A DNA stretch of 64,000 bases from Acidobacteriota bacterium (GTDB lineage Bacteria > Acidobacteriota > CAIWXX01): positions 256,001 to 320,000 of the forward strand of contig JBFMAF010000036.1 in the NCBI GenBank assembly GCA_040755995.1, given 5' to 3'. The position numbers and the translations under genes are program-made. The notes under the pieces were generated by a model. That model searched no databases and was not told the origin of the DNA. It was given only the letters and a program-made list of their open reading frames with translations. This document shows, one piece after another, positions 8,907 through 63,025 of the stretch. Within the stretch, counting starts at the first letter, position 1, and each line of letters begins with the position of its first letter.

Positions 8907-10286
8907 TCATCCTCCTTGGGGCTCCTTCTCCACTCTGTCCGCGACGCTCAACGCCCCAGCGGGCGCGTCGCCGGCGACGCTCAGCGCGCCGGATGTCGCG
9001 GCCTGCTCGGCCATCGAGACCCAACCGCGCTCGACCGATCCCAGCCGGGCCTGGATCGCCGCGACCGCCTGGCGCGCGGCAGCACGCACGCGGGGCGGAC
9101 TTCCCTTCTCGATCTCCATCAGCTCCGTCACATCCGCCGCCACCCCGCGCTCCCCCAGCGACTCGATCGCCGCGAGCCTCACGGCCGTCTCGTTGTCGCG
9201 GAGGACCTCCAGGAGCGTCTCGTGTGCCCGTGGGTCATCGAACCGTCCGATTGCCCGCGCCGCGGCGGCCCGAAGCGCGGCTCCACGGCGGCTCCTGGTG
9301 ATCTCACAAAGCACCGGGACGCTGGCCGAGTCGCGCCACTCCGCGAGGGCTGCGACAGCCGCTATTGTGACATCGTCCTGCGCGCTGTCGAGTGTGGCGC
9401 GGATGAAGGTGAGTGTCCTGTCGCCGCCCAGTGCCTTCAGCGCGCGAACGGCCTGGATCGCATGGGGCGTGGGAGCCGCCATCGCGGCGGCGGCGAGCCG
9501 CGGAATCCCGCGCTCACCGAGGGCCCCGGCAGCCGGCACGGCAATCGACCAGTCATCTTCGGATGCGGCTCTCTCCAGCGCCGTCTCGATTGACGGGGAC
9601 CGGTCCATGCGCAGAAGCAACTCCAGATTCCGGCGCCGAACTGTCGGATTGGAGTCGCCAAGCATGTTGTCGATGAGAAGCTGCTCGACGCCCTGCCAGC
9701 GCCCGAGCCTTTCGCTGAGCTCGGCGGCAGTCTGGAGCATCGCGATCAGATCGCCGGGCTCCGGAACGAGATCCGAGACATCCCGGTGCAGAGCGCCGCC
9801 GGTGATCTCCCAACCCTCGATGCCCACGAGCTGTCTCATCAGTTCGCGCGTCCTCATGTCCAGCAGGCTTATGACTGCGCCTTCGGAGTCACCGGAGATG
9901 AGGACCATGTCGTCGAATTCGCGATCCCCGGTCTGGGTGTCGTCGCCGGCGAAGACTCTCCTGTGGCCCGAGCCCCCGCCCTCGCGTGTGGCCTGGATCG
10001 CGTGCGGAATCCCGTTCGGCGGGCTGACCGTGAGGATTGTCCGCGCAACGTTGCCCTCCCAGGTCGGATGGGTGGCAAGTCCAACGCTGACACTCTGTCC
10101 TCGGACCGTCCCCGACATCTTGGGCCACCTTGTGCCATGCAGCCAGTCGGTGCCGCCGAGGATGACCAGGCCGAGGCTCCTCGCCTCCTCATCCAGCGGG
10201 CGCGCAGCCGGCCTCCTCAGGATGTTGTATGCCGCGAGAAACGCAGCGGCTACGGAAGCCAAAATGATGATGGAGGTGTCCAGCAT
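8907..10286 (-). CDS. Membrane-anchored HEAT-repeat protein (paralog 1)
   Basis: N-terminal TM helix; repeats such as AVRLAAIESLGERG; collinear with 11162..12580. Confidence 0.8.
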   Translation of the reverse strand: MLDTSIIILASVAAAFLAAYNILRRPAARPLDEEARSLGLVILGGTDWLHGTRWPKMSGTVRGQSVSVGLATHPTWEGNVARTILTVSPPNGIPHAIQATREGGGSGHRRVFAGDDTQTGDREFDDMVLISGDSEGAVISLLDMRTRELMRQLVGIEGWEITGGALHRDVSDLVPEPGDLIAMLQTAAELSERLGRWQGVEQLLIDNMLGDSNPTVRRRNLELLLRMDRSPSIETALERAASEDDWSIAVPAAGALGERGIPRLAAAAMAAPTPHAIQAVRALKALGGDRTLTFIRATLDSAQDDVTIAAVAALAEWRDSASVPVLCEITRSRRGAALRAAAARAIGRFDDPRAHETLLEVLRDNETAVRLAAIESLGERGVAADVTELMEIEKGSPPRVRAAARQAVAAIQARLGSVERGWVSMAEQAATSGALSVAGDAPAGALSVADRVEKEPQGG

Positions 10287-41222: not shown

Positions 41223-43193
41223 ATGACAGCTCCAGGGGAAGCGAAGCTCAAGCATCTGTTCCAGCCTGGACGGATCGGCAGGTTCGTCACAAAGAACCGG
41301 GTCAAGTACGGTGCCTGCTGCGTCTCCAACTACAACACCCGCGACGGGTTCATAACGGAGCGCGAGCTGGCGCGCACGCGCGTAATCGCTCAGACCGGCT
41401 GCGGCATCATCACAAACCAGGGGGCCTATCCCGACCCCGCCGGCGAAGGCAAGGCGTACTTCCGGCAGGTCGCCATCTACGACGACAGGTTTCTCCCGCA
41501 GTTTGAAAAAATCGCAGGCTACATCAAGGAGGCCGGCGCCGTCGGCATTCAACAGATTCTGCACGCCGGGCGTTACGGCGGCATAGACCTGGGCTATTGC
41601 GTGCAACCTTCCGACGTGCCGCAAACCCTGCCGCACTTCAGACCGCCGCGGGTGCTCACGGTCCAGCAGATCCACGACATCGTCGGGCAACATGCCGACG
41701 CGGCCCGGCGCGCTATCCGCGCCGGATTCGACGGCACTGAAGTCACGAGCTTCATGGGATACCTGCTGGCCAACTTCAACTCCCGCTTCACGAACCAGCG
41801 CACCGACGAATACGGCGGCTCGGTCATTAACCGCGGCCGCTTTATGCGCGAGCTGATCGACGCCATCAAGCAGGCGACGCCCGACAACCCGCTCATCATC
41901 CGTCTGAACGGCGACGAGCTGATGCAGCGATGGGGCGGCAGCACCGAAGACGAATGCTACGAGCTCATGCAGCAGGCCGTCGATTGCGGTGTCGACATGA
42001 TCTCCGTCACCGTCGGCTGGCAGGAGGCTCCGGAATCATCTATCGGCCGCGACATTCCACCCGGCTACTGGAATTACCTCTCGGGACGCGCCAAGAAGAT
42101 GTTCCCCAATACCCTGATCGCTTTCGGCAACCGCTTGCCCGACCCGCGCATGGCCGACGACTGCATCCGCGACAACGTTTTCGACTTCTGGGAAGTCTGC
42201 CGCCCGCTGCTGGCCGACCCCGAGCTCATTCACAAGGCTGCCGAAGACCGCCTTGAAGAGGCTCGTCACTGCATCGGCTCCCTCAACTGCCTCTCGCGCC
42301 TCTTCCGCGACCTGCCTTACACCTGCACCATGAACCCGGCTCTGGGGCACGAAGGCGAGCCCGAGTATCAGATCAGGCAGGCAGCGGTTCGAAAGAAGAT
42401 CATGATCATCGGCGCCGGCCCGGCAGGAATGGAGTGCGCCATCACCGCGGCCGGGCGCGGTCACGACGTAACCGTCTTCGACAAGGCCGGCCGCATCGGA
42501 GGAAGCCTCGCAGCCTATATCGACAACGATCTGGCGCGGCCCGAGGATCTCAGATCAGTCATCGCGCACCACGAGGTCATGGCCAGAAAGCTGGGCGTCC
42601 AGATTCGCCTCAATACGGAAGTCGAAGCCAAGTTCATGCGCAGCGTGCTGCACGAGTACGATGTGGCGGTCGTCGCCGCCGGCGCGAAGATGGATCGCGA
42701 TGCGTGGCGAACGGTGGAGGGGCATGAGCTGATCGTGGATATCGCCGAGGTGGCACATCGCCGCGTGCAGCCGGGATCGAGGGTGGTTGTGATCGGTGGT
42801 GGCAAGATCGGCCTGACCGTTGCGGAGTACCTCAAGAAGAACGGGACGCACGTCACCGTTCTCGAACAGTCCAGGCGCATAGCCGGGGATGTCAAGCCCT
42901 CTTTCAAGTGGCGCCACTCGTCGTGGGTGGAGGAGCTGGAGATTCCTTGTCTCACGAGCTCCCGGCCCGCGAAAATCACGCGCGAAGGCGTCAGCGTGAT
43001 CAATGACAAAGGCAAGGAAACGTTCGTGCCGGCAGACATGGTGTTGTTTGCGGCGCCGCGCAGGCCCAACCAGGAGTTGTTCCACGAATTCGAGTGGATG
43101 ATCGACGAGCTTCACGGCATCGGCGATGCGCTCATCCCCCGCGGCCTCGAACAGGCCATTCACGAGGGATACCGGCTGGGCGCGAGGATCTAG
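41223..43193 (+). CDS. NADH:flavin oxidoreductase (old-yellow-enzyme barrel + Fe-S + FAD/NAD domains; FadH-like architecture)
   Basis: QILHAGRY, AGFDG, RTDEYGGS..NRGRF, RPLLADP, IIGAGPAGME, VIGGGKIG. Confidence 0.9.
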   Translation: MTAPGEAKLKHLFQPGRIGRFVTKNRVKYGACCVSNYNTRDGFITERELARTRVIAQTGCGIITNQGAYPDPAGEGKAYFRQVAIYDDRFLPQFEKIAGYIKEAGAVGIQQILHAGRYGGIDLGYCVQPSDVPQTLPHFRPPRVLTVQQIHDIVGQHADAARRAIRAGFDGTEVTSFMGYLLANFNSRFTNQRTDEYGGSVINRGRFMRELIDAIKQATPDNPLIIRLNGDELMQRWGGSTEDECYELMQQAVDCGVDMISVTVGWQEAPESSIGRDIPPGYWNYLSGRAKKMFPNTLIAFGNRLPDPRMADDCIRDNVFDFWEVCRPLLADPELIHKAAEDRLEEARHCIGSLNCLSRLFRDLPYTCTMNPALGHEGEPEYQIRQAAVRKKIMIIGAGPAGMECAITAAGRGHDVTVFDKAGRIGGSLAAYIDNDLARPEDLRSVIAHHEVMARKLGVQIRLNTEVEAKFMRSVLHEYDVAVVAAGAKMDRDAWRTVEGHELIVDIAEVAHRRVQPGSRVVVIGGGKIGLTVAEYLKKNGTHVTVLEQSRRIAGDVKPSFKWRHSSWVEELEIPCLTSSRPAKITREGVSVINDKGKETFVPADMVLFAAPRRPNQELFHEFEWMIDELHGIGDALIPRGLEQAIHEGYRLGARI

Positions 43194-43195
43194 TT

Positions 43196-43609
43196 GTGAA
43201 GAAGATCCTGCAGCCGCCGGGATGGAACCAACCGAAAGGCTACAGCAATGGTGTGTCGGTTCGCGGGGAGTTGGTTTTCGTGGCCGGACAGGTTGGATGG
43301 GATGAGCAGGGACGGTTTCGGACCGACGACCTGGCCGGTCAGGTGGAACAGGCATTGAAGAACGTGGTCGCGGTGCTGGCAGAAGCCGGGGCGCGGCCCG
43401 AGCATATTGTGCGCATGACCTGGTACCTTGGAGACAAGGATGAATACGATAGGGCGCAGAAGGACCTGGGCCGCGCCTTTCGAAGGATCATCGGTGACTA
43501 CGGTATTGCGATGACGGCGGTGCAGGTGGCGGGTTTCGTCGAGCCAGGCGCCAAGGTCGAAATTGAAGTGACGGCCGTTGTTCCCGACATCGATGCCAAG
43601 GGAGAGTGA
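43196..43609 (+). CDS. RidA/YjgF family protein
   Basis: LQPPGWNQPKGYSNG, VFVAGQVG, KVEIEVTAV; start GTG 2 nt after the upstream stop. Confidence 0.9.
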   Translation: MKKILQPPGWNQPKGYSNGVSVRGELVFVAGQVGWDEQGRFRTDDLAGQVEQALKNVVAVLAEAGARPEHIVRMTWYLGDKDEYDRAQKDLGRAFRRIIGDYGIAMTAVQVAGFVEPGAKVEIEVTAVVPDIDAKGE

Positions 43610-44072
43610 GGGCCTCATTTGCCGGAGTCCTGGAATGCAAGCCCGTGATTCAGCGAGCCAGCAGGTGTTCGGCGAGCTCGGCCCGTGGCAGGCGATGCTG
43701 GAACGCAACAGCGAGCTTTTCTCCGGGGTGCAACCCGGCGCCAGGATCGGGATCATGCCGCGCAGCGCACCGGGCTCTGCAGAGCAGCTCATGTTGGTAT
43801 GGCAGGTCGCAGAGGGCGGTATCTCGGCGCGATTCGAGCTATTCGACGGCATTCCTTCGATCAAAGCGGATCTCCTCCTGGCGGCTGACGCAGATGCCAT
43901 GACTGCGATTCGCGACGCTCTGAGCGGAGACATCCTGGCTGCGATGAAGCGACAGATCCGGCGAGGCGGCATTCTGGTTTACGTGCTCCGAACCAAGCGC
44001 CAGCTTCAGGACGCCGGCTACGAAGATCTTCTCGACTCTCTCGGATCAGGCTACCTTGGTGCCTGCCGGTGA
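43578..44072 (+). CDS. Hypothetical protein (start uncertain)
   Basis: Fills the operon gap; GTGA overlap with the next ORF; ends in GACR. Confidence 0.6.
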   Translation: MFPTSMPRESEGLICRSPGMQARDSASQQVFGELGPWQAMLERNSELFSGVQPGARIGIMPRSAPGSAEQLMLVWQVAEGGISARFELFDGIPSIKADLLLAADADAMTAIRDALSGDILAAMKRQIRRGGILVYVLRTKRQLQDAGYEDLLDSLGSGYLGACR

Positions 44073-47183: not shown

Positions 47184-49229
47184 CTATCGGCTGATCTTCA
47201 TGGTGAGCACCCCGGCCCCCCCGGTGCCCGCCAACAGGGTACTCGGCGCTGAAGGATTGATCGCAAGCGCTCCTATGTACGCGTTCGCCATTCCTGCGCT
47301 TGACATCGCCCTCCAGCTGGCACCTCCATCCTCGCTCACGTACACACCACGACCATAGGTGCCGAGATATACCCTTGTCGGAGCAATCGGGTCAATCGTC
47401 AGCGAGCACGGCGTTGTATAGTCCGGTAGGTCAGGTGTTAGCCTGCTCCAACCGCCTCCTCCGTTCGTGCTCTTGTACACGTCATATGGCCAGACCAATG
47501 CGTAGAGGTTGCTGGGCGTCACAGGGTCGACCGTCAGGGATTCCACCAGTTGGCGCTCCAGGCCGCGCCTGGCGGCCTGCCAGCTACTGCCTCCGTTGGT
47601 ACTCTTAAGGACCCCATCTCCGGTCCCAACGTAGATGGTACCCGACCTTCCTGGGTCGACAGCCAGTGATCTTGCGTACGCATAATGTGGCAATACGACG
47701 CGATGCCAGTGAGAGCCCGAGTCGCTACTCTCGAAGAAGTCGCCCAATAGTACAGCGTAGAGGGTAGATGTCTTCTTCGGGTCGATTGCCAGTGCGTCGA
47801 GGTAGATAGCGTCTACCTGACGGGGCAGTCCCTCATCTGCGGCACTCCAAGTCCCACCTCCATCCGTGCTCTCGAGCACGGCTGGGCCATCCGAGCGCCC
47901 ATTTGTGTATAGGGTAGATGGGATCTGAGGGTTGACCGCGAGTGCCAGGATGCTATGTCCCGAAGGGTCCCCTAGCACCTTCTTCCAGGATCGGCCTCCG
48001 TTCGTGCTCTTGAACAGGCCCGTCATCTGCGTCCCAGCGTATACTATGCCTGGTCTGGCCGGGCTGGTCGCGAAGGTCGTGACCATGGTGTTCGCGATAC
48101 CGCTATTGGAGGAACGCCAGCTCTCGCCTCCATCCGTGCTACTGAACAGACCGGAGTGGGTGGCGCCACAATACACCGCGAGCGGCGTCGCGGGGTCAAC
48201 GGCCAACGCTTGCACTGCCACGGCCAGAGGTCTCATGGTTGGCAGGCCATTGTTCATGTCGCTCCAACTCGCGCCCCTGTTTGTGCTCTTGAAGACTCCG
48301 CGCATCGATCCGGCATAGATGGTAGAGGGGTTCGTTGGGTCGATCGCCAAGTCTACCACGTAGGGGTCTTCCGGAATGCCTCGACTGATAGGGAACCAGT
48401 GGCTGCCACCGTCCACCGTGTAGAAGATCCCCCCCAGGTAACCGGTCTGGGCAGCATAGACTCTAGGGGGTGTGCTCTCCTCAAGCGCAATGGCAGTAAT
48501 GCGGCTATTCTCTGAAATCCACCCATGATTGATGGGCGTCCAAGAACGGCCCTTGTTCGTGCTCGTGCGCACTCCACCAGTAGTTCCGGCATAGATGGTC
48601 TCAGGTTCACTGCGCGTAATAGCCAGAGCGTTCACGATCAAGCCCAACAACCCAGCCTTGCACTCAACCCAACGGTCACCGCCATTGGTGCTCTTGTACA
48701 GTCCTCCCATGCCCCCTGCGTACAAGGTCGTCGGCGTCGCAGGATCAACAACCAAAGCGAGCAGGTCAGTGTTCGTCAGTCCGATGCTAGCCGCGCGCCA
48801 GGTAGCGCCCCCATCTGTGCTCTTGAAGATACCTCCAGCGGTTGCAGCGTAGATCGTCGCCGGTGCTCCAGGATCGATGGCGAGCCGACTAATGACAGTG
48901 TTGTCCAAACCCTTATTTATTGCGCGCCAGGAATTGCCCCCGTTTGTGCTCTTGAAAACGCCACCTCCTTCTTCGTCGCCGGTGTCATAGCCGGTGGCGT
49001 CCACACCGCTCCGTAGGCGGTGGTCAAGCGTAAACTTTCCCTGAATCCCGGTCCCCAGGTAGATAGTAGCAGGGGCGGACGGAACAATCGCAATTGCGCT
49101 CACGCTGCCCCCGAAAGGGCCATGGCTGGTCCATGTCTCTACTCCGCCTGAGGTTGTTGGCTCAGCCGGAACTGCAACGGTGACAATCGATATCAAGAAC
49201 AAGGAGCCAGTTCGTCGCTGTCGCTTCAT
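47184..49229 (-). CDS. Secreted BNR/Asp-box (VPS10/sortilin-like) beta-propeller protein
   Basis: Signal peptide; about 12 repeats of GxFKSTNGGxSW...LAIDP. Confidence 0.88.
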   Translation of the reverse strand: MKRQRRTGSLFLISIVTVAVPAEPTTSGGVETWTSHGPFGGSVSAIAIVPSAPATIYLGTGIQGKFTLDHRLRSGVDATGYDTGDEEGGGVFKSTNGGNSWRAINKGLDNTVISRLAIDPGAPATIYAATAGGIFKSTDGGATWRAASIGLTNTDLLALVVDPATPTTLYAGGMGGLYKSTNGGDRWVECKAGLLGLIVNALAITRSEPETIYAGTTGGVRTSTNKGRSWTPINHGWISENSRITAIALEESTPPRVYAAQTGYLGGIFYTVDGGSHWFPISRGIPEDPYVVDLAIDPTNPSTIYAGSMRGVFKSTNRGASWSDMNNGLPTMRPLAVAVQALAVDPATPLAVYCGATHSGLFSSTDGGESWRSSNSGIANTMVTTFATSPARPGIVYAGTQMTGLFKSTNGGRSWKKVLGDPSGHSILALAVNPQIPSTLYTNGRSDGPAVLESTDGGGTWSAADEGLPRQVDAIYLDALAIDPKKTSTLYAVLLGDFFESSDSGSHWHRVVLPHYAYARSLAVDPGRSGTIYVGTGDGVLKSTNGGSSWQAARRGLERQLVESLTVDPVTPSNLYALVWPYDVYKSTNGGGGWSRLTPDLPDYTTPCSLTIDPIAPTRVYLGTYGRGVYVSEDGGASWRAMSSAGMANAYIGALAINPSAPSTLLAGTGGAGVLTMKISR

Positions 49230-49248
49230 GGTCACGCCTCAGTGTCGA

Positions 49249-49611
49249 TCAGTAGTCATCCGACAGGAGTCCAACAGTCCTGAGCTCCCTCAGGAGCTCC
49301 GGCCTGGCTTCGCGAAGCCTCCTAACGCGCTTTCGCTTGTAGGGCGCTATCTCGGCCACCTGACGAACCAGCATCGCCAGCGACGCGATTCGCTCCTCGG
49401 ATGAGCCTATCAGTTCCTGGAGTCGAAGGACGTTCTTCTCTGAAATATGCGACTGCGTCATGAGTCCCAAGACCTCATCCTCTTGCTCGATCCTCGCAAT
49501 CATCTCCGCGGGGAGTCGCTGACACTTCTTGCATATGTGGCGGACGTGACCCCGGCCAGAGAATTGCTCGTTCGGCCGGGACTTTCTACAGATACGGCAA
49601 TAGTGACTCAT
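49249..49611 (-). CDS. Hypothetical Cys/His-rich (putative Zn-binding) protein
   Basis: MSHYCRICRKSRPNEQFSGRGHVRHICKKC; ATGA overlap with the Mo-subunit stop. Confidence 0.75.
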   Translation of the reverse strand: MSHYCRICRKSRPNEQFSGRGHVRHICKKCQRLPAEMIARIEQEDEVLGLMTQSHISEKNVLRLQELIGSSEERIASLAMLVRQVAEIAPYKRKRVRRLREARPELLRELRTVGLLSDDY

Positions 49612-51986
49612 GTTTCCAGAGCCCCGCGTTCCTTCTCGCGAAGCGCTGCGACAATCTTCTCCGGGGTGATCGGCAGGTCGCGGATGCGGATGCCGATGGC
49701 GTCGCAGATGGCGTTGGCGATGGCGGGGGCGGTCGGGACGAGGCCGGGTTCGCCGACTCCTTTGGCTCCGAAGGGGCCCGCGGGGTCGTTCGTTTCGACG
49801 AAGGCGACATCGATCGGAAAACTCATGTCTCCGGCGGTCGGGAGCTTGTAGTCGGTGAAGCTCGGGTTCAGGATGCGGCCGCGCTCGGTGCGCACCTCCT
49901 CGTAGAGCCCGTAGCCGATCCCCTGCGCCAGCGCTCCGTAGATCTGCCCGCGCAGGGCCTGCGGATGCAGCACGCGCCCGACGTCGTGCACGGCGACGAT
50001 CCGCAGAATACGCACGTCGCCCGTCTCTTCGTCCACTTCGACTTCCACACCTTGCGTTCCGAATGCGTAGGTCGCCGACATGTTGCCGAGGCCCTTCTCC
50101 CAATCGGGGAGCTCCGAAGGCGGGTCGTAGAACGCTTCCACGGTCAGCATGTTTCCTCCAGGACGGAAGTGGATCCCGCGCAGAATCTTCCCGAGCTCGA
50201 TCGGCGCGCGGGGGTCGGAGGCGAGCGGCCCATCCTTGAGGAAGAGCCGGCCATCGGCGAGATCGAGCAGGCCCGGGCGGATCTCGCCGATATCGGAGTG
50301 CCCGCGTAGAGCTCGCCTCAACTCCTCAGCGTACACAGGCGCGGCCAGCTCAAAGAGACGCTCCCGCAGCTTCGCGGCCGCGAGCGCGACGGCCGAGAGC
50401 GCCGTGAACGCGCCGCGGCTCGCGTGCGTCCCCACGTCCCACGGACACGTGGCGGTGTCGGTCTGGTTGACGATGACGTTCTCGGGACGCACACCGACGA
50501 ATTCGGCGACGCCTACCGCGAGCGCTGCGTGGTGGCCCTGCCCCATTTCCACACCGCCCGCGTACACGTATACGTTGCCGAAATCGTCCAGACGCATGAT
50601 CACACCGCTGGCATCCGAGCGGTAGATGCGCCCGGAACCTCCGACGTGCATCAGCGATGCGATCCCGACACCGCGCCGCTTCGACCGGCCCTTCCCCCGC
50701 TTCTCACTCCACCCGAGCCGAGCGGCCGTCTGATCGATGCACTCGGGAAGACCGCACGTTCCGATCTTCAGGCCCATCGGAGTCACATCTCCGGGCCGGT
50801 TGCTGTTGAGACGCCGGATATCGAGCGCATCCATGCCGGCCGCTTCGGCGAGCTCATCCAGGTTGCTCTCGATGGCCCAGGTCACCTCCGGGTTTCCATA
50901 GCCGCGCATGGCCTGGCAGTACGTGTTGTTCGTGTAGACGATCTGCGCTTCGAAGCGCACGGCGGGCACCCGATAGAGCGACGTCGCGGGCAGCATCATC
51001 ACGCCGGGGTACGTCGCTCCCCACGACGTGTAGGCGCCGTTGTCCTGCAGCACGTCGATCTCGCGGAAGGTGAGCCGGCCCGAGCTGTCGCAGCCCTGTT
51101 CGATCGACACGACAGCGCACTGGCGCGGCGACAGATACGCGAACTCCTCCTCGCGCGTGTAGAGGATCTTCACCGGGCGCCCCGTCGCGCGGGCGAGCAG
51201 GATCGCGATGTATTCGTAGGCGTGTGTGTCGAGCCCCGTGCCGAAGCCGCCGCCGAGTGCCGGCACGATGACGCGGCTGTTGCGGCCGGGGAGGCCCATG
51301 TCGGCCAGCGCGCGGTTGAAGTCGCGCTGCGCCAGGAACGGGATCTGCGTCTTCGCCCAGATCGTCAGGTTGCCGCGATCGTCCATCTCGGCGATGCAGC
51401 CGGCCGTGCCCATGCAGCTCTGCTGGATGCGCGGCACCGAAAACTGCCCGGAGACGATGTGCGCCGAGCGTCGCCGGGCCTCCGGCAGGTCGCCCGAGAC
51501 ATGGCGGAACGTGAGCGGCACGCGGTTGTCCGCTCGAGGCTTGCCCGAAGGGTCGGTTTCGTGCACAAGAGGCGCGCCCTCGGCGAGCGCCTCGCGCGGA
51601 TCGAACACACCGGGCAGCGGCTCGTACTCGACGCGAATCGCATCCACAGCCTCGGCCGCAATCTCCGGATCGATCGCCGCCACCGCCGCCACCTCGTCGC
51701 GGAACTGCCGGACCTTGCCCTTCTTGAGCGCGAAGTTGTCGCGAAGGAAGCCGATCCGCACCTCGGGCGTGTTTGACGCCGTCAACACGGCACACACACC
51801 AGGCATGCGCTCGGCGCGCGATGCGTCGACATTCACGATCCGGGCGTGAGCGTGCTCGGAGAATTTGATCTTTCCGTAGAGCATCCGCGGGCGCGTGATG
51901 TCATGGATGTACTCGGCCGCACCGCGTGCCTTGGCGCCGGCATCGGGTCGCGGGATCTCTCTGCCGATGAACCGGTGCTCGCTCAT
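49608..51986 (-). CDS. Xanthine dehydrogenase family molybdopterin-binding large subunit
   Basis: LGGGFG, AMRGYGNP, EMGQG, THASRG, GAKGVGEP; start re-called at MSEHRFIG. Confidence 0.93.
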   Translation of the reverse strand: MSEHRFIGREIPRPDAGAKARGAAEYIHDITRPRMLYGKIKFSEHAHARIVNVDASRAERMPGVCAVLTASNTPEVRIGFLRDNFALKKGKVRQFRDEVAAVAAIDPEIAAEAVDAIRVEYEPLPGVFDPREALAEGAPLVHETDPSGKPRADNRVPLTFRHVSGDLPEARRRSAHIVSGQFSVPRIQQSCMGTAGCIAEMDDRGNLTIWAKTQIPFLAQRDFNRALADMGLPGRNSRVIVPALGGGFGTGLDTHAYEYIAILLARATGRPVKILYTREEEFAYLSPRQCAVVSIEQGCDSSGRLTFREIDVLQDNGAYTSWGATYPGVMMLPATSLYRVPAVRFEAQIVYTNNTYCQAMRGYGNPEVTWAIESNLDELAEAAGMDALDIRRLNSNRPGDVTPMGLKIGTCGLPECIDQTAARLGWSEKRGKGRSKRRGVGIASLMHVGGSGRIYRSDASGVIMRLDDFGNVYVYAGGVEMGQGHHAALAVGVAEFVGVRPENVIVNQTDTATCPWDVGTHASRGAFTALSAVALAAAKLRERLFELAAPVYAEELRRALRGHSDIGEIRPGLLDLADGRLFLKDGPLASDPRAPIELGKILRGIHFRPGGNMLTVEAFYDPPSELPDWEKGLGNMSATYAFGTQGVEVEVDEETGDVRILRIVAVHDVGRVLHPQALRGQIYGALAQGIGYGLYEEVRTERGRILNPSFTDYKLPTAGDMSFPIDVAFVETNDPAGPFGAKGVGEPGLVPTAPAIANAICDAIGIRIRDLPITPEKIVAALREKERGALET

Positions 51987-52459
51987 CTCTCCCCTCTCCG
52001 CAGCCCCGCTGCCGCGTGGACGGCCTCGACGATTTGCACATATCCTGTGCACCGGCAGATGTTCCCGACAAGTGCATCGCGAATATCGGACTCGCTGGGA
52101 GTGGGGTTTCGGTCCAGCAGCGCCTGTACCGACAGGATCATTCCGGGAGAGCAGAACCCGCATTGGATTCCGCCTTGCTCCACGAATGCCTGCTGAACTG
52201 CCGATAGCTCGGTTCCGCGCGGCAGGCCCTCGATCGTCGTGACCTCCCGCCCCTCCGCCTCGAGAGCCGGAAAGAGGCAGGAGTTAACCGGTCGCCCGTC
52301 CACCAGCACGGTACACGCCCCGCACTCACCCTTGCCACAGCCTTCCTTGGTCCCCGTCAAATGAAAGTGGTCACGCAGGACTTCCAGAAGCAGTTTGCTC
52401 CCCTCGACCTCGCCCAATACCGGCGAGCCATTGAGAGTGAATGCGAGGGGATGCTTCAT
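51983..52459 (-). CDS. Xanthine dehydrogenase family 2x[2Fe-2S] small subunit
   Basis: [33 protein letters not shown]. Confidence 0.95.
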
Positions 52460-53316
52460 GGTCTTGCCTGCCCCAGGAGCGTTTCCAGAGCGCGTCTCAC
52501 GAAGACGCCGGTGATGTGTCTCCGGTATTCTTCACCGGCACGCAAGTCGCAAATCGGGGCTACGCTCTCGCGCGCAAGATTCGCCGCGGCCAGGAGGAGA
52601 TCGCGTTTCATCTCTTGCCCGGTCAGCAGGCGTTCGACGGATTCAAGTCGTCGAGGTGTCGGGGCCACCGAACCGACGGCTACGCGCGCTTTCACGCAAG
52701 TGGCTCCATCCAGCTCGAGCAGGACAGCGACGCTCGCGAGCGCGAGGTCCATGGCGACGCGTCTCTTCTTGAAGAAAATCGCACGAGCGTTCGGCGCAGG
52801 TGGGTCTAGGACCACACCCGTGACGAGGTCATGCGGCCCGAGGCGCGTCTGTCGAGGCCCGAGGAAGAATTCTTCGAGCGGGATCTCGTCTTCCTGCCCG
52901 CCCGGGCGACGGACGGCGAGTCGCGCCCCCAGTACCAAGAGCGGCGGGGCGGTGTCGGCGCAGGGGCTCGCCGTGCAGAGATTGCCGCCCACGGTCGCCA
53001 CGTTTCGGATCTGCACCGAGCCCATCGAAGCCATCGCCTGCACCAGGACCGGGAAGCGTGAGGAAAGTGCCGGGTCGCCGATGCAGTCAGCGATCGGTGT
53101 GGCCGAGCCGACTCGGACGAAGCCGTCTGCACGCACGCCGGAGAGCTCCGCGATGCGGCGAAGCGAGACCAGCGCCGCCGGGCTCTCTTTGCGTTCCTTC
53201 ATGCGCACAATCAGGTCGGTGCCGCCGGCCAGATACTTCGCACCTTCTGTGCGCGCCTTCAACTCCTGCGCCTCTTCCACACTACGCGGGCGCAAGAACT
53301 CGAAACGCCCCCTCAT
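52456..53316 (-). CDS. Xanthine dehydrogenase family FAD-binding medium subunit
   Basis: LAGGTDL, QIRNVATVGGNLCTASPCAD, VGSVAPTP. Confidence 0.93.
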   Translation of the reverse strand: MRGRFEFLRPRSVEEAQELKARTEGAKYLAGGTDLIVRMKERKESPAALVSLRRIAELSGVRADGFVRVGSATPIADCIGDPALSSRFPVLVQAMASMGSVQIRNVATVGGNLCTASPCADTAPPLLVLGARLAVRRPGGQEDEIPLEEFFLGPRQTRLGPHDLVTGVVLDPPAPNARAIFFKKRRVAMDLALASVAVLLELDGATCVKARVAVGSVAPTPRRLESVERLLTGQEMKRDLLLAAANLARESVAPICDLRAGEEYRRHITGVFVRRALETLLGQARP

Positions 53317-54527
53317 GCGATAACTCCTTCTTGCCGCAACGCGGCGACTTCACTTTCACGCAGCCCGGCCTCCCGCAGCACCGCATCGGTGTGCTCGCCG
53401 TATGCCGGAGCAAAGGGCAGCTCGCCTCCGCGACTCTCGAGGTGCGGCGTCGAGACCGCCGGCGGCGGCAAACGGACGAGACGGCCGTCGGGGGCCAGTG
53501 TTCGGAGCGCCGCCGCTTTCACGAAGTCCAGATCGGCAACCTTATCAACCGGCGTGATCGGCGCATGCGGTACCGTCGCGGCTCGGAGGACCTCGGCCAC
53601 TTCGGCAAACGAGTGCCGGCTCGTGATCTCCTCGATCGCGCGAAAGATGTCCGCCTTGTGCGCGCGGCGCCCTTCATTCGTCGCGAATTCGCCGCGCCCG
53701 AGCGCCGCGAACATCGGATGGCGCGACAGGCGCTGCCACTGCGCGTCGCTCCCGATCGCAATGTAGATGTATCCGTCGCGCGTACGATAGGCGTTCACCG
53801 GAATGAACTGGCGATGCTCATTGCCGGCGCGGCGAAGCTCGGAGGGCGGGCTTCCCATGTCGAGCATCGGCAGGAAAGTGTGCAGCCACGACACCGCCGC
53901 CTGCGCCATCGATATGTCGATGCGCTTCCCACGGCGGGTGCGATCGCGCTCGGCCAGCGCCAACATCACCTGCAGAAACGCTTCGTCCCCCGCTTTGAGG
54001 TCGATCAGCGGCGGGCCGCACTGGAGCGGCGGGCCGTCGGCGTGGCCGGTGAGGTCCATGTAGCCGCAGAGCGCCTGCAGCATCGGATCGTAGCCGGGAA
54101 CGTCCGGGTAGGCCGAGCCCATCGCCGAAATGCAGCACCAGACGAGCTCAGGGCGAGCCGCCGAGAGCGTCTCGTAGTCTATCCCAAGCTCGGTGTGGCG
54201 CGCGGGCAGCGTGTTCGTGCAAAAGACGTCCGCAGGCAGCTCGCGCACGAGCCGCAGCAGAAGTTGTCGTCCTTCCGGACGTTTCAGATTCAGCGCAATC
54301 GCTTCCTTGCCCACATTCGGCGCGACGTAGTAGCTGTGGCGGTCATCGCCGGCGATCCTACGGCCGACATACCGGTTCGGGTCTCCCTTGGTCTCGCGCC
54401 CTGAAGCCGGTGTCGGCTCGACGCGAATCACGCGGAGGCCCTGATGGACGAGGCGCAGCGTGGCGTAAGACATCGACAGTGCCTGTTCGAGCGCCAGGAC
54501 AAGGGGCACGTTCTTGGAAGCCGGCAC
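53313..54527 (-). CDS. Class III (CaiB/BaiF) CoA-transferase
   Basis: VIRVEP, GDPNR, NVGKEAIALNLK, PGYDPMLQA, PLIDLKAG (catalytic Asp position), PAYGEHT. Confidence 0.9.
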   Translation of the reverse strand: MPASKNVPLVLALEQALSMSYATLRLVHQGLRVIRVEPTPASGRETKGDPNRYVGRRIAGDDRHSYYVAPNVGKEAIALNLKRPEGRQLLLRLVRELPADVFCTNTLPARHTELGIDYETLSAARPELVWCCISAMGSAYPDVPGYDPMLQALCGYMDLTGHADGPPLQCGPPLIDLKAGDEAFLQVMLALAERDRTRRGKRIDISMAQAAVSWLHTFLPMLDMGSPPSELRRAGNEHRQFIPVNAYRTRDGYIYIAIGSDAQWQRLSRHPMFAALGRGEFATNEGRRAHKADIFRAIEEITSRHSFAEVAEVLRAATVPHAPITPVDKVADLDFVKAAALRTLAPDGRLVRLPPPAVSTPHLESRGGELPFAPAYGEHTDAVLREAGLRESEVAALRQEGVIA

Positions 54528-54621
54528 GATTTCACCTAGCCCATCTTGGACGCAGACGATGCAAGCCAGGTCCGTCCACCTCTATGTCCAGCTGATCCGC
54601 GGTGCTGTGGGTGGATCAAGG

Positions 54622-56649
54622 CTACAACCGCACCCGTTCCACGTAGGTGCCCAGCTCGTCCTTGAGCGTTGCACAAACCTCGCCGACGGAGGCATACGCA
54701 GAAACCGCCTCGAGGATCGGTGGCATGACGTTGTCGTGGGCTCGCGCCGCCTCACGCACTCGCCGCAGCAGACTCGCCACCGCCGCTCCGTCTCGCTCGC
54801 GCCTCACCCGTTCGAGCCGTGCGATCTGCCGCCGCGCCTCCTCTTCTCGATACGGGTGCATTTCCACAGGATGCGGCTGCTCCTCCTCGCGGCAACAATT
54901 CAGGCCGACCTTCTTGATGGCCCCACTGCGTATCTGTTTCTCGCGCTCATAGGCGCTGCGATTGACCGCAGCCTGCACGCGGCCGTCGGCGATCGCCGGG
55001 ATGATCCCGCCCTGCGAGCTGATCTCTTCGAGAATCCTCTCGATCAGCGATTCCATCTCGTTTGTCGTGGATTCGACAAACCACGACCCGGCGAGAGGGT
55101 CCACAGTGTCGCAGGCCCCTACCTCGTACATCAGGATCTGCATCGTACGCAGCGACAGACGCGCCGCGTGTTCGCTCGGGATCGTGTAAGCCTCGTCGTA
55201 CGAGCACAGTGCCATCGTCTGCGTGCCGGAAAGGGCGCTGGCGAGGGCGTAGTAGGCGCCGCGCGCGATGTTGTTCTCGGGCTGCTCGATTGTGAGCCCG
55301 GCTCCGCCGCCGCCTGCGATCATGCGAAGCTGCATGGCGCGCGGGTCCTTCGCACCGTAGCGCTCGCGCAGGATCCGCGCGTAGAGCCGCCTTCCGGCGC
55401 GGAACTTCGCCACCTGCTCCCAGAGGTTTCCATGTATGTCGAAGTTGAAGGATAGCCCCCGCGCCACTTCGTCAACCGCGAGCCCTCGCGACATCATGTG
55501 ATCGACATAGGCGAAGGCGATCGCGAGCCCGTAGGCCATCTCTTGCGCCGGCGTCGCACCGGACTCGCGGATGTGGTAGCCGCACACGGACACCGGGTTG
55601 TAGTGAGGGACGTGCTCGGCGCAAAACGCGATCGTGTCGCCAACGAGCCGGACGCTGTCTTCGACCGGGAAGATCCACGTGCCGCGCCCGACGAACTCCT
55701 TGAGGATGTCGTTTTGCGCCGTACCGCGAAGCTGACCGAGCTCGAAGCCGCGCTTCTTCGCCATCGCGAAAAACATCGCCATGATCGGCGCAGCGGCGCC
55801 GTTGATCGTGAGCGAGACGGTGGTGCGGTTGAGGTCGATTCCCTCGAACGCCTCCTCGATGTCGGCGAGCGTGTCCACTGCCATGCCGACCCGGCCGACT
55901 TCGCCCGCGGCCATGGGGTCGTCGGAATCGAGGCCGCATTGAGTCGGAAGATCGAAGGCGACGTTGAGCCCCGTCTGCCCGTGCGCAATCAGGTACAGGA
56001 ATCGTTCGTGCGTTTCCGCGGCCGTCCCGAAGCCGGAGTACTGCCGCATGGTCCAGGGGCGCTGGCGGTACATCAGCGGGTGGATGCCGCGAGTGAAGGG
56101 GTACTCGCCCGGAGCACCGATGCCGTTCCAGCCGCCACTGGCTTCGACATCGCTCGCCGCATAGACGGGCTTTATCTCGATGCCGGACTCCCATCGCACC
56201 TCGCGGGACTCGACACTCGTGCGCACGGCGGCGGCAACGGGCGCCGCGGCCCTGGCGGTTCGCCCTCGGATGAACGTCACGATATCTTCGAATGAAGCTC
56301 CTGTTGGAAAAACTGCGGCGACGCCGAGTTGCATGAGCGCCTCATGATCGCGCGGCGGCACGTTCCCGCCGACGATCAGGGTCGCGCAATCCATGATGCC
56401 TGCCGCGCGCAGCTCTTCCACCACACGCTCGCACAGCGGCACGTGGGCGCCCGAGAGAATCGAGAGGCCCACGACATCGACATCCTCGTCTCGCGCGGCG
56501 CGCGCAATAGCTTCGGGACTCTGGCGCAGCCCGGTGTAGATGACCTCCATGCCCGCGTCCATGAGGGCGCGGCAGATGAGCTTCGCGCCGACATCGTGCC
56601 CGTCCAGGCCGGGCTTGGCCACGAGCACGCGGACCGGCCGCTCGCTCAC
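54622..56649 (-). CDS. AdoCbl-dependent acyl-CoA mutase; N-terminal B12-binding domain fused to the catalytic barrel
   Basis: KPGLDGHDVG (DxHxxG), then PGEYPFTRG, WTMRQYSGF, AFDLPTQ, QNDILKE, GYHIRE, SYDEA. Confidence 0.93.
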   Translation of the reverse strand: MSERPVRVLVAKPGLDGHDVGAKLICRALMDAGMEVIYTGLRQSPEAIARAARDEDVDVVGLSILSGAHVPLCERVVEELRAAGIMDCATLIVGGNVPPRDHEALMQLGVAAVFPTGASFEDIVTFIRGRTARAAAPVAAAVRTSVESREVRWESGIEIKPVYAASDVEASGGWNGIGAPGEYPFTRGIHPLMYRQRPWTMRQYSGFGTAAETHERFLYLIAHGQTGLNVAFDLPTQCGLDSDDPMAAGEVGRVGMAVDTLADIEEAFEGIDLNRTTVSLTINGAAAPIMAMFFAMAKKRGFELGQLRGTAQNDILKEFVGRGTWIFPVEDSVRLVGDTIAFCAEHVPHYNPVSVCGYHIRESGATPAQEMAYGLAIAFAYVDHMMSRGLAVDEVARGLSFNFDIHGNLWEQVAKFRAGRRLYARILRERYGAKDPRAMQLRMIAGGGGAGLTIEQPENNIARGAYYALASALSGTQTMALCSYDEAYTIPSEHAARLSLRTMQILMYEVGACDTVDPLAGSWFVESTTNEMESLIERILEEISSQGGIIPAIADGRVQAAVNRSAYEREKQIRSGAIKKVGLNCCREEEQPHPVEMHPYREEEARRQIARLERVRRERDGAAVASLLRRVREAARAHDNVMPPILEAVSAYASVGEVCATLKDELGTYVERVRL

Positions 56650-57764
56650 GGATACAGCCCTCGCGCTATCGCGCCGCGCAGGATCTCGGATGTTCCTCCG
56701 CCGATGAGCGTGAAGCGCACGTCGCGCAGGTAGCGTTCGACGGGATACTCGCTCGCGAACCCGTAGCTCGCCATGACGCGGGCGGCGCGATCGCAGATGC
56801 GGAGCGCGGCCTCCGAGGCGAAGAGCTTCGCCATGGCTGCTTCATTTTCGTTGGGAAGCTTCTGGTCGCTTCTCCAGGCCGCCCAGTAGGTGAGCCTCCG
56901 CGCGGCTTCAAGATCGACGGTCATCTCGGCCAGGTGCTCCTGCACGGCCTGATGATCCTTGATCGGTTTCCCGAACTGCTTCCGTACGGCTGCGTACGCC
57001 ACGGCCTGTTCATGGGCCGCGGCGGCCACACCGAGTGCGAGCGCGGCGGTCATGACGCGGATCTCGGCCAGCACCTCCCGGAGGTAGGTGCCGCCGGCGT
57101 CCCTTTCGCCGAGGAGGCACGTGGCCGGCGTGTCGTCAAAAGAGACCTCGGAAGTGAGCGACGCGCGCACGCCCATCTTGTCGATGTCCTTGCCGATCGA
57201 CAGCCCGGGCGCCCCGGCTTCGACCAGAAATACCGAAAGGCTCTTCTCGCCCGTCTTCGCGAACACCGTGAACATCTGCGCCGCGCGGGCCGAGGTGACC
57301 CAGGTCTTGCAACCGGTCAAGCAAAAACGCCCATCACGCTCGACCGCGCGCGTCGTCATCGCCATGAGATCGCTGCCGGCGTCGGGCTCCGTCATGCAGA
57401 TGGCGCCGACGATTTCGCCTCTAAGAGCTCCCGGCAGCAGCCGCGCGCGCACCTCATCCTTTGCGAAACGCTGGACGAAAGTCGTCCCCATCAGTGACTG
57501 CAACGCGCAGGCAGCGGCTACAGAGAGGCTCCCGCGCGCGAGCTGCTCGATGGCGAGGACGTACGACACCACGTCGGCGCCGCTCCCATCTGGCTCCGGG
57601 TACCGCATGCCGAAAAGCCCGAGCTCCCCGGCGCGCCGGAAAAGCTCGTTCGGGAAGCGCGGGTTGCGGTCGAGCTCCGCGGCGGCAGGGCGCACCTCGC
57701 GCTCGGCAAAAGCGCGAAACGCCTCCTGAACCGCCCGCAGCTCTGCGGTCAGAGCAAAGTCCAT
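56646..57764 (-). CDS. Acyl-CoA dehydrogenase
   Basis: ICMTEPDAGSD, GCKTWVT, RKQFGKPI, AMAKLFASE, GGGTSEILR. Confidence 0.93.
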   Translation of the reverse strand: MDFALTAELRAVQEAFRAFAEREVRPAAAELDRNPRFPNELFRRAGELGLFGMRYPEPDGSGADVVSYVLAIEQLARGSLSVAAACALQSLMGTTFVQRFAKDEVRARLLPGALRGEIVGAICMTEPDAGSDLMAMTTRAVERDGRFCLTGCKTWVTSARAAQMFTVFAKTGEKSLSVFLVEAGAPGLSIGKDIDKMGVRASLTSEVSFDDTPATCLLGERDAGGTYLREVLAEIRVMTAALALGVAAAAHEQAVAYAAVRKQFGKPIKDHQAVQEHLAEMTVDLEAARRLTYWAAWRSDQKLPNENEAAMAKLFASEAALRICDRAARVMASYGFASEYPVERYLRDVRFTLIGGGTSEILRGAIARGLYP

Positions 57765-57823
57765 ATGTTGCCCATCTTCGCGAGCAGGCCGTTCATCGCA
57801 GGGAATTCCCGGACCACCGGTCC

Positions 57824-57862
57824 AGAGTAAAGCCTCCCGCAGCTTGTGTCAATACTGTTGAC
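57824..57862 (-). promoter_or_regulatory. sigma70 promoter of the acyl-CoA dehydrogenase/mutase operon with overlapping inverted repeat
   Basis: Minus strand TTGACA(57852-47)-N17-TACTCT(57829-24); GTCAA-N5-TTGAC at 57848-57862. Confidence 0.65.
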
Positions 57863-57979
57863 CATGTTGCAGCTTCCGGGTTTCGAGTGGGTGACCACTA
57901 TGGGTTGTTGTCAGGAGACGCGAGTGCCGTTTCCCGGTACTTCTTTCGCTGCAAATAGGGCGCGCGCCGGGTTGCAACA

Positions 57980-58019
57980 GACGCGGAGACGCGGTGAGGG
58001 GGAGACGCGGAGACCCCGA
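57980..58019. repeat. 5 degenerate tandem octamers (GACGCGGA)
   Basis: gacgcgga gacgcggt gaggggga gacgcgga gaccccga. Confidence 0.65.
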
Positions 58020-58029
58020 CGGAGGGCAC

Positions 58030-58243
58030 GCGTTGCATCGCTGCCGACGCGGTAGATCGTTTCAACACCTAGCCCGCCGCGTTGGCGGCCGGCCCCGGCC
58101 GAGTCGCGCAGGTATTCGTGCTTGATCAGCGTGTGCGGCGTCATGTGCTCGAACATCTCGCAGTCCTGGTCCAGGACGCCGCCCGAGGCGTCTATCATCC
58201 CGATGTGGTCGTAGCCGTCGCAGTCGCGCATCGCGCCGGAGCC
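58030..58243 (-). pseudogene. Internal fragment of a hydantoinase B/oxoprolinase family gene
   Basis: GSGAMRDCDGYDHIG...EMFEHMTPHTLIKHEYLRDSAGAGRQRGGLG. Confidence 0.75.
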
Positions 58244-62859: not shown

Positions 62860-63025
62860 CTAGTAGCTCCGGTTCGCACGCAGGCGGGCGGTTTCTTCGG
62901 CGAGCACCTCGCAGGTGTCGGGATCGAGGGCCACGCCGTAGTGGCGGCGGGCGCTTTCGAGCGAAAGGATGCCGTCGCGGACTTCCCTGTCCATCTCCTC
63001 CGAATCAGGATTCCGCCATCCGGAG
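62860..63025 (-). pseudogene. C-terminal fragment of a hydantoinase B/oxoprolinase family gene, fused to an unrelated hydrophobic N-terminus
   Basis: GWRNP...REVRDGILSLESARRHYGVALDPDTCEVLAEETARLR. Confidence 0.65.

Follow-up and report, generated by a model that had tools for sequence, protein, structure and literature searches.

In Aromatoleum, anaerobic degradation of indoleacetate employs a molybdenum hydroxylase (IaaIJK), and the iaa operon of Aromatoleum aromaticum combines this three-subunit enzyme with an acyl-CoA dehydrogenase carrying a GGG motif, a B12-dependent mutase, a class III CoA-transferase and a hydantoinase A/B pair, together with a CoA ligase (IaaB), an auxin-binding protein, a regulator and beta-oxidation genes that we take to be those of IaaA/IaaP. 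The hydantoinase-like step (IaaCE) is described in PMC8453981, and the CoA-transferase, mutase and dehydrogenase steps (IaaL, IaaGH and IaaF) in PMC8360864, which also lists predicted iaa clusters with electron-transfer flavoprotein (ETF) genes in the strict anaerobes Desulfatiglans anilini, strain NaphS2 and Ferroglobus placidus. Here we analyse a locus of the same gene families in Acidobacteriota bacterium (assembly GCA_040755995.1), located in a 64,000-nucleotide stretch of contig JBFMAF010000036.1 (positions 256,001 to 320,000; hereafter the window). A preliminary description had read one gene unit of the window either as an iaa pathway in another lineage or as an analogous route whose substrate is unknown. 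We found that this unit forms the downstream part of an operon of ten genes, the upstream part of which lies 15 kb away, and the combined analysis makes it probable that the two halves encode a working iaa-type anaerobic route that would open the pyrrole ring of tryptophan-derived indoleacetyl-CoA. The first of the two earlier readings is supported by the GGG motif of the dehydrogenase, a non-canonical mutase, an intact hyuAB pair, co-conservation of the gene set and its tracking with the ring-cleavage marker Oah, and the analogous route was judged less likely. Genes, gene order, motifs and co-occurrence were observed directly, and all enzymatic steps assigned to these proteins are predictions.

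The split operon and its conservation across phyla

The host locus has the five components named above in common with the A. aromaticum operon, the hydroxylase again being a three-subunit Mo enzyme, but differs from it in several respects. It is fronted by an indolepyruvate oxidoreductase (IorAB) with a GltD-like domain, and has no binding protein, regulator or CoA ligase, with no IaaB-type ligase in either operon half; its mutase halves are fused with the B12-binding domain first; the operon is split by ~15 kb; the cluster is without thiolase or hydratase genes; and no canonical lower pathway was recognised in the genome. In the predicted clusters of the strict anaerobes the IaaF-branch dehydrogenase lies among iaa genes, as the GGG dehydrogenase of the host lies among iaa-type genes, whereas the ETF genes of those clusters are missing from the host unit and an ETF-like gene was seen in 4 of the 80 related loci described below.

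The claimed minus-strand unit of six genes with mostly overlapping junctions was borne out, and all named genes are intact open reading frames (ORFs; Table 1). If the junction to a further 120-aa ORF is included, the unit has six junctions, of which five are 4-bp GTGA or ATGA overlaps, and the sole junction without overlap is that from mutase to CoA-transferase (spacing of ~94 bp). The 120-aa ORF had no Pfam or NCBIfam match, a best Atlas score of 0.81 and a counterpart in 0 of 80 related loci, and is probably a passenger. The promoter-like site ahead of the dehydrogenase gene was not recovered by a consensus promoter scan and is a lead only.

Hydantoinase-B sequence is indeed present just upstream of the unit, as had been described, but merely as an internal remnant of hyuB. 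Intact hydantoinase A/B genes, which the preliminary description proposed to seek elsewhere in the genome, were found as an adjacent pair on the same contig, preceded by iorA and iorB. GC content is 66% in both operon halves and 63% genome-wide. The hyuB pieces are not collinear, and the hyuB site appears to take repeated insertions. A recent acquisition of the complete operon by horizontal transfer was considered and is unsupported, as a genome of the same family (G001) has the upstream half, iorAB-hyuAB, at 71–91% identity.

Table 1 Features of the split operon. Coordinates, here and in the text, are window positions unless prefixed C36 (host contig), C27 (another host contig) or by an L-number (fetched loci).
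Feature	Position	Strand	Basis or remark
IaaF-type acyl-CoA dehydrogenase, 372 aa	56646..57764	-	GGG motif, tree; predicted decarboxylating (2-aminobenzyl)malonyl-CoA dehydrogenase
B12-dependent acyl-CoA mutase, IaaG/H-type, B12-domain-first fusion, 675 aa	54622..56649	-	PF02310, PF01642
Class III CoA-transferase, IaaL-type, 404 aa	53313..54527	-	PF02515
FAD subunit, xanthine-dehydrogenase-family enzyme, 286 aa	52456..53316	-	PF00941 + PF03450
2x[2Fe-2S] (FeS) subunit, 158 aa	51983..52459	-	PF00111 + PF01799; cysteine motifs intact
Mo subunit, 792 aa (ATG at 51986)	49608..51986	-	PF01315, PF02738, PF20256; cofactor motifs present; predicted indole C2 hydroxylation
120-aa ORF, ATGA-coupled	49249..49611	-	no family assigned
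Weak promoter-like site, perfect -35, 3/6 at -10, 17-bp spacer	57824..57852	-	by eye, ahead of dehydrogenase gene
Internal hyuB remnant, 212 bp	58032..58243	-	90% DNA identity to intact hyuB 15 kb upstream
Second hyuB remnant (3' end)	62879..62986	-	86% DNA identity
Third hyuB remnant	C36:322655-322837		86% DNA identity
Intact iorA-iorB-hyuA-hyuB unit	C36:328934-336876		same strand as downstream half, beyond window
Intact hyuA-hyuB (two-subunit ATP-dependent lactamase, IaaCE type)	C36:328934-332837		phosphate-binding motifs present
iorA, 1150 aa, indolepyruvate oxidoreductase alpha chain + GltD-like flavin/FeS domain	C36:333424-336876 (L001:13424-16876)	-

Several minor features accompany the break. 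The gap holds an integron-type integrase in two pieces (C36:325640-326932; first piece scoring 231 against a cut-off of 265) and an ORF (C36:322151-322522) that we take to be PemK/MazF-like and that had no NCBIfam match at 1e-30. A ~45-bp repeat at 57974-58027, at the end of the first hyuB remnant, has copies at several other genome sites, and BNR-repeat beta-propeller genes (47184-49235 and C36:338539-340458) lie on either side of the region that holds the split operon. Scraps of hyuB amid unrelated cargo genes were also seen downstream of hyuB in G001 (L174:7061-7176 and 9722-9837).

Scanning with the CoA-transferase as query yielded 147 confirmed stretches, the best 80 of which were analysed as related loci; many of them end at contig edges. 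They come from metagenome-assembled genomes (MAGs) titled Planctomycetota, Myxococcota, Gemmatimonadota, Acidobacteriota, Aminicenantes and others; Aromatoleum is absent from the best 80. Their CoA-transferases are 62–78% identical to that of the host. Matches over more than half of the query were obtained for the FAD (74 of 80 loci), FeS (69) and Mo (63) subunits, the mutase barrel (51) and B12 domain (47), HyuA (36), HyuB (34), the dehydrogenase (31) and IorB (22). The recurring order is iorB-hyuA-hyuB-F-G/H-L-FAD-FeS-Mo, contiguous in 14 of 80 loci by a scripted count (for L003, the chain from iorB to the Mo gene is contiguous in the locus listing itself). Where both genes are present, the dehydrogenase adjoins hyuB in 22 of 23 loci; the GltD-like domain is fused to IorA in 19 of the 24 loci with IorA; and an AMP-forming ligase motif was found in 0 of 80. 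Recurring neighbours include thiolase (20 loci), epimerase-like (17), ferredoxin (15), hydratase/dehydrogenase (11) and HisC-type aminotransferase (9) genes. The co-conservation anticipated for the gene set was confirmed in the same order across phyla, and since the same set recurs in the same order in other genomes, a chance grouping of the unit genes is excluded.

Within the host phylum (301 genomes including the host, G000), a mutase orthologue was found in 8 genomes and a HyuB orthologue in 8, with six common to both. In G001 neither the CoA-transferase nor the mutase has an orthologue and the Mo gene is represented by a 143-bp scrap alone, and in a second comparison genome (G002) neither operon half was recovered with these queries. 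Changes at conserved columns of the host proteins show no excess in 10 of 11 query segments; HyuB has 7 such changes, near the top of the range and matched or exceeded in 2 of 31 relatives. These data bear on whether the genes share the iaa ancestry and yet form a relic or a route cut short in the host, with a break at hyuB and a downstream half poorly expressed or decaying, in which case at most 2-aminocinnamate- or anthranilate-type products would be released. The three hyuB remnants and two-piece integrase in the gap, the lack of over-cut-off matches for a canonical lower pathway, the weakness of the promoter-like site and G001 as a conceivable end state, with its scrap of a Mo gene, would all fit such decay. 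We nevertheless regard it as unlikely, since the ten genes are intact, their motifs are kept, conserved-column changes are not in general excess, and a divergent cluster of Oah-, Dch- and Had-like genes on C27 (see below) could act as the lower pathway.

Active sites and clades of the pathway enzymes

The GGG motif of the dehydrogenase aligns with YEG of solved enzymes, and PMC8360864 distinguishes the IaaF subclass (benzylmalonyl-CoA dehydrogenase) by the replacement of YEG with GGG and places all IaaF-branch enzymes examined there in iaa operons. The host gene, too, lies beside other iaa-type genes. In an 80-row tree the protein clades with Burkholderiales-type GGG enzymes (SH-aLRT 99), to which it is 51–58% identical; this tree and the 36-row mutase tree below are quick trees of chosen rows with no bootstrap. 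The ends of these Burkholderiales-type enzymes resemble the ends read off published iaaF primers, a likeness that is suggestive of IaaF. Plasmid searches for Iaa proteins returned generic relatives only (best 44% and 35%), the published iaaF forward primer, scanned against metagenomes, picked out 32 loci and 0 GGG enzymes in iaa context, and sequence-cluster look-ups had no named cultured member. A divergent dehydrogenase ending in FGGGCHE, 37–41% identical to that of the window, was seen in L006, L027, L046, L053 and L056, adjoining ETF-like genes in 4 of these 5 loci; it is perhaps the strict-anaerobe form of IaaF.

The mutase contains just two Pfam domains in its 675 residues, PF02310 at 7–118 and PF01642 (the barrel) at 154–667. 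It keeps RQYSG (as do 120 of 120 top homologues), KEFVGRG and the substrate arginine, and reads IAGGGG and CSYDEA versus HCQTSG and NSFDEA in methylmalonyl-CoA mutase. Tyr and Arg of the carboxylate type are retained in a glycine-rich pocket; we assume substrate-pocket roles for these and neighbouring residues, and the altered pocket may have room for an aryl group. In the mutase tree, which carried a long-branch warning, its clade (support 100) is separate from the two other mutases of the host. By motifs and clade it is of neither the methylmalonyl- nor the isobutyryl-CoA type, in agreement with the earlier expectation that it would fall outside the canonical clades.

Like the host mutase, IcmF has its B12-binding domain ahead of the barrel in a single chain, and the host protein matches NF045497 in two stretches. 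It differs from IcmF in that no MeaB G-protein domain lies between the two parts (linker of ~25 residues), in its substrate positions, which are Tyr/Arg instead of Phe/Gln, and in its score of 296 bits against a cut-off of 1500; MeaB chaperones are present in the host. Fusion of the two mutase halves is rare, occurring in 11 of 120 top homologues (query included, all B12-first) and in 1 of 47 loci having both halves. The fused forms are scattered in the mutase tree, a pattern consistent with neighbouring genes having fused more than once, and a single-chain mutase would be a handy object for studying the aryl-migrating rearrangement.

Every subunit of the unit scores under the canonical equivalog cut-offs. 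The CoA-transferase falls under every named NCBIfam cut-off and keeps the Asp of GYDPMLQ, presumably the catalytic residue. The three-subunit Mo enzyme was assigned to the molybdenum hydroxylases at family level only. Among solved structures its Mo subunit is closest to the alpha chain of 4-hydroxybenzoyl-CoA reductase (1RM6), and the Mo (534 bits against a cut-off of 995), FAD (119 against 405) and FeS (182 against 258) subunits are all under the cut-offs for that enzyme. The beta chain of 4-hydroxybenzoyl-CoA reductase has an extra FeS insert, and the host FAD subunit, at 286 aa against a 321-position model, appears to be without it.

The distance from characterised enzymes raises the question of whether the set is a sister pathway acting on a related compound, such as a substituted indoleacetate, another lactam-forming N-heterocycle or an arylsuccinate. 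The limited identity to the Burkholderiales-type dehydrogenases, trees without characterised sequences and a reductase as nearest solved relative of the Mo subunit are what such a pathway might leave, but IorAB and the HisC-type aminotransferases indicate an aromatic amino acid, of which tryptophan would be the one whose ring can form a lactam, and the confinement of the examined IaaF-branch enzymes to iaa operons also argues against it. We consider a sister pathway improbable. Far less credible still is that these are ordinary general enzymes (methylmalonyl-CoA mutase, purine hydroxylase and fatty acyl-CoA dehydrogenase) with no common pathway: the homologues do bear generic database names, but the gene order kept across phyla, altered active sites, separate clades and sub-cut-off subunit scores speak strongly against this.

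Proposed route and lower pathway

The iorAB front end points to tryptophan as the entry to the proposed iaa-type route. An aminotransferase encoded elsewhere would convert tryptophan to indolepyruvate, from which IorAB would form indoleacetyl-CoA and CO2, taking the place of the Aromatoleum auxin-binding protein and CoA ligase. The fusion of IorA to a GltD-like domain is likely an NAD(P)-linked 2-oxoacid oxidoreductase, its flavin/FeS domain probably delivering the electrons to NAD(P)+. In F. placidus, entry of tryptophan via indolepyruvate oxidoreductase is said to have been described by Aklujkar et al. in 2014. The Mo enzyme would then place a water-derived oxygen onto C2 of the indole, and HyuAB, with ATP, would open the resulting lactam to (2-aminophenyl)succinyl-CoA. 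After the CoA-transferase had shifted CoA to the other carboxyl group, the B12 mutase would yield (2-aminobenzyl)malonyl-CoA, which the GGG dehydrogenase would oxidise and decarboxylate to 2-aminocinnamoyl-CoA, and general beta-oxidation enzymes could complete the conversion to 2-aminobenzoyl-CoA and acetyl-CoA. For the entry step, conversion of indolepyruvate to indoleacetyl-CoA by other enzymes is reported in bioRxiv 10.64898/2026.01.29.702580.

The gene set tracks Oah (TIGR03200), a marker of benzoyl-CoA ring cleavage. Of the 80 carrier genomes, 62 have Oah over its cut-off (38 of 50 and 24 of 30), as do 3 of 3 same-phylum carriers, versus 5 of 57 same-phylum genomes without a CoA-transferase orthologue; this control covers a single phylum of non-independent kin and incomplete MAGs, with no test statistic.

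Several observations weigh against a working route of this kind in the host. The host genome (99.84% complete) has no over-cut-off match for Oah, BoxB or the AbmA-type model, and none of its five class I benzoyl-CoA reductase candidates is over cut-off; five tungsten-family proteins were also matched by no model. The thiolase and hydratase/dehydrogenase of other clusters have their best host matches, at 38% and 32%, on contigs other than C36. The operon is interrupted by unrelated genes over about 15 kb, and the downstream genes are absent from G001. At the entry step, IorA (614 against a cut-off of 651) and IorB (163 against 206) score just under the NCBIfam cut-offs, and the same preprint has Ior enzymes accepting further aromatic 2-oxoacids. 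GGG occurs in 20 of 150 dehydrogenase representatives, several from unrelated clades, and is not diagnostic alone. The evidence for orthology to the Aromatoleum Iaa proteins is indirect.

A lower pathway of another form may be present in the host. The divergent Oah-, Dch- and Had-like genes lie on a second contig at C27:52208-60337 (L190:2208-10337, minus strand), together with genes for XdhC, YqeB and a Mo enzyme that is close to 4-hydroxybenzoyl-CoA reductase. Their best hits score 207 against a cut-off of 464 (Oah), 132 against 292 (Dch), 238 against 339 (Had) and 839 against 995 (4-hydroxybenzoyl-CoA reductase alpha). This cluster is a possible lower pathway for a substituted benzoyl-CoA. 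The Oah-like protein was matched in 2 of 27 genomes searched, including 1 of 25 cluster carriers, and is no general partner of the gene set.

Flavoenzyme modules and pathway subtypes

Inside other iaa-type clusters we observed a module of a naphthoyl-CoA-reductase-like flavoenzyme, a ferredoxin and an epimerase-like protein (L012:6875-9724; L137-L166). The best solved relative of the flavoenzyme is 2-naphthoyl-CoA reductase. Among the best 30 of 36 flavoenzyme loci, 29 have the ferredoxin adjacent, 26 have an epimerase-like gene and 24 have an iaa-type gene within 1.5 kb. The flavoenzyme is found in 2 of 26 genomes with a window-type dehydrogenase at the locus versus 34 of 54 others, with groups defined by the fetched locus and 15 candidates scored for most genomes. 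In four module genomes, three of them titled chromosomes, a second IaaF-like query matched at just 34–37%, and in one of the four the window dehydrogenase query gave no match at 1e-80. Some loci hold the module together with a divergent GGG dehydrogenase, and replacement of IaaF is thus not strict. The module is a candidate for a new redox step.

Tentatively, the iaa genes may at root constitute an anaerobic pathway for tryptophan that is widespread among uncultured bacteria of water and sediment in several phyla, with two subtypes, one that starts with a self-contained, NAD(P)-linked indolepyruvate oxidoreductase (the IorA-GltD fusion) and ends with IaaF and the other with the naphthoyl-CoA-reductase-like flavoenzyme, ferredoxin and epimerase-like protein replacing IaaF. 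If true, the second subtype would act on an aminoaryl-CoA ester in a redox step of a new kind, bearing on electron disposal under anoxia. The electron acceptor of the IaaF step is left undetermined in PMC8360864, and the module offers testable candidates for this question.

Many uncultured bacteria share the gene set, which likely serves to open the tryptophan indole ring under anoxia. The pathway, previously examined in a small number of denitrifiers, is thereby extended to MAGs under the five taxon titles listed above, in which its genes go by generic names (methylmalonyl-CoA mutase or butyryl-CoA dehydrogenase, for example), and the analysis suggests that the usual substrate is tryptophan from decaying protein rather than plant auxin. 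The chemistry of the window genes has most likely already been described, and their arrangement is a rearranged variant of the known iaa pathway. None of the papers that our literature searches turned up deals with an Ior-fronted iaa operon, a B12-first fused mutase of this kind or the flavoenzyme module, but comparative studies of iaa clusters beyond these may cover them.

The window itself encodes a further flavoenzyme of 656 aa, in a plus-strand unit (41223-44072) with a RidA-family gene and then a small SCP2-like protein, and its best solved relative is likewise 2-naphthoyl-CoA reductase. This unit was rejected as part of the iaa cluster, as the flavoenzyme is only 37–45% identical to the cluster-linked flavoenzymes and G001 has the unit (87%) without the downstream genes. 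In G001 the unit is kept at 82–87% in two places.

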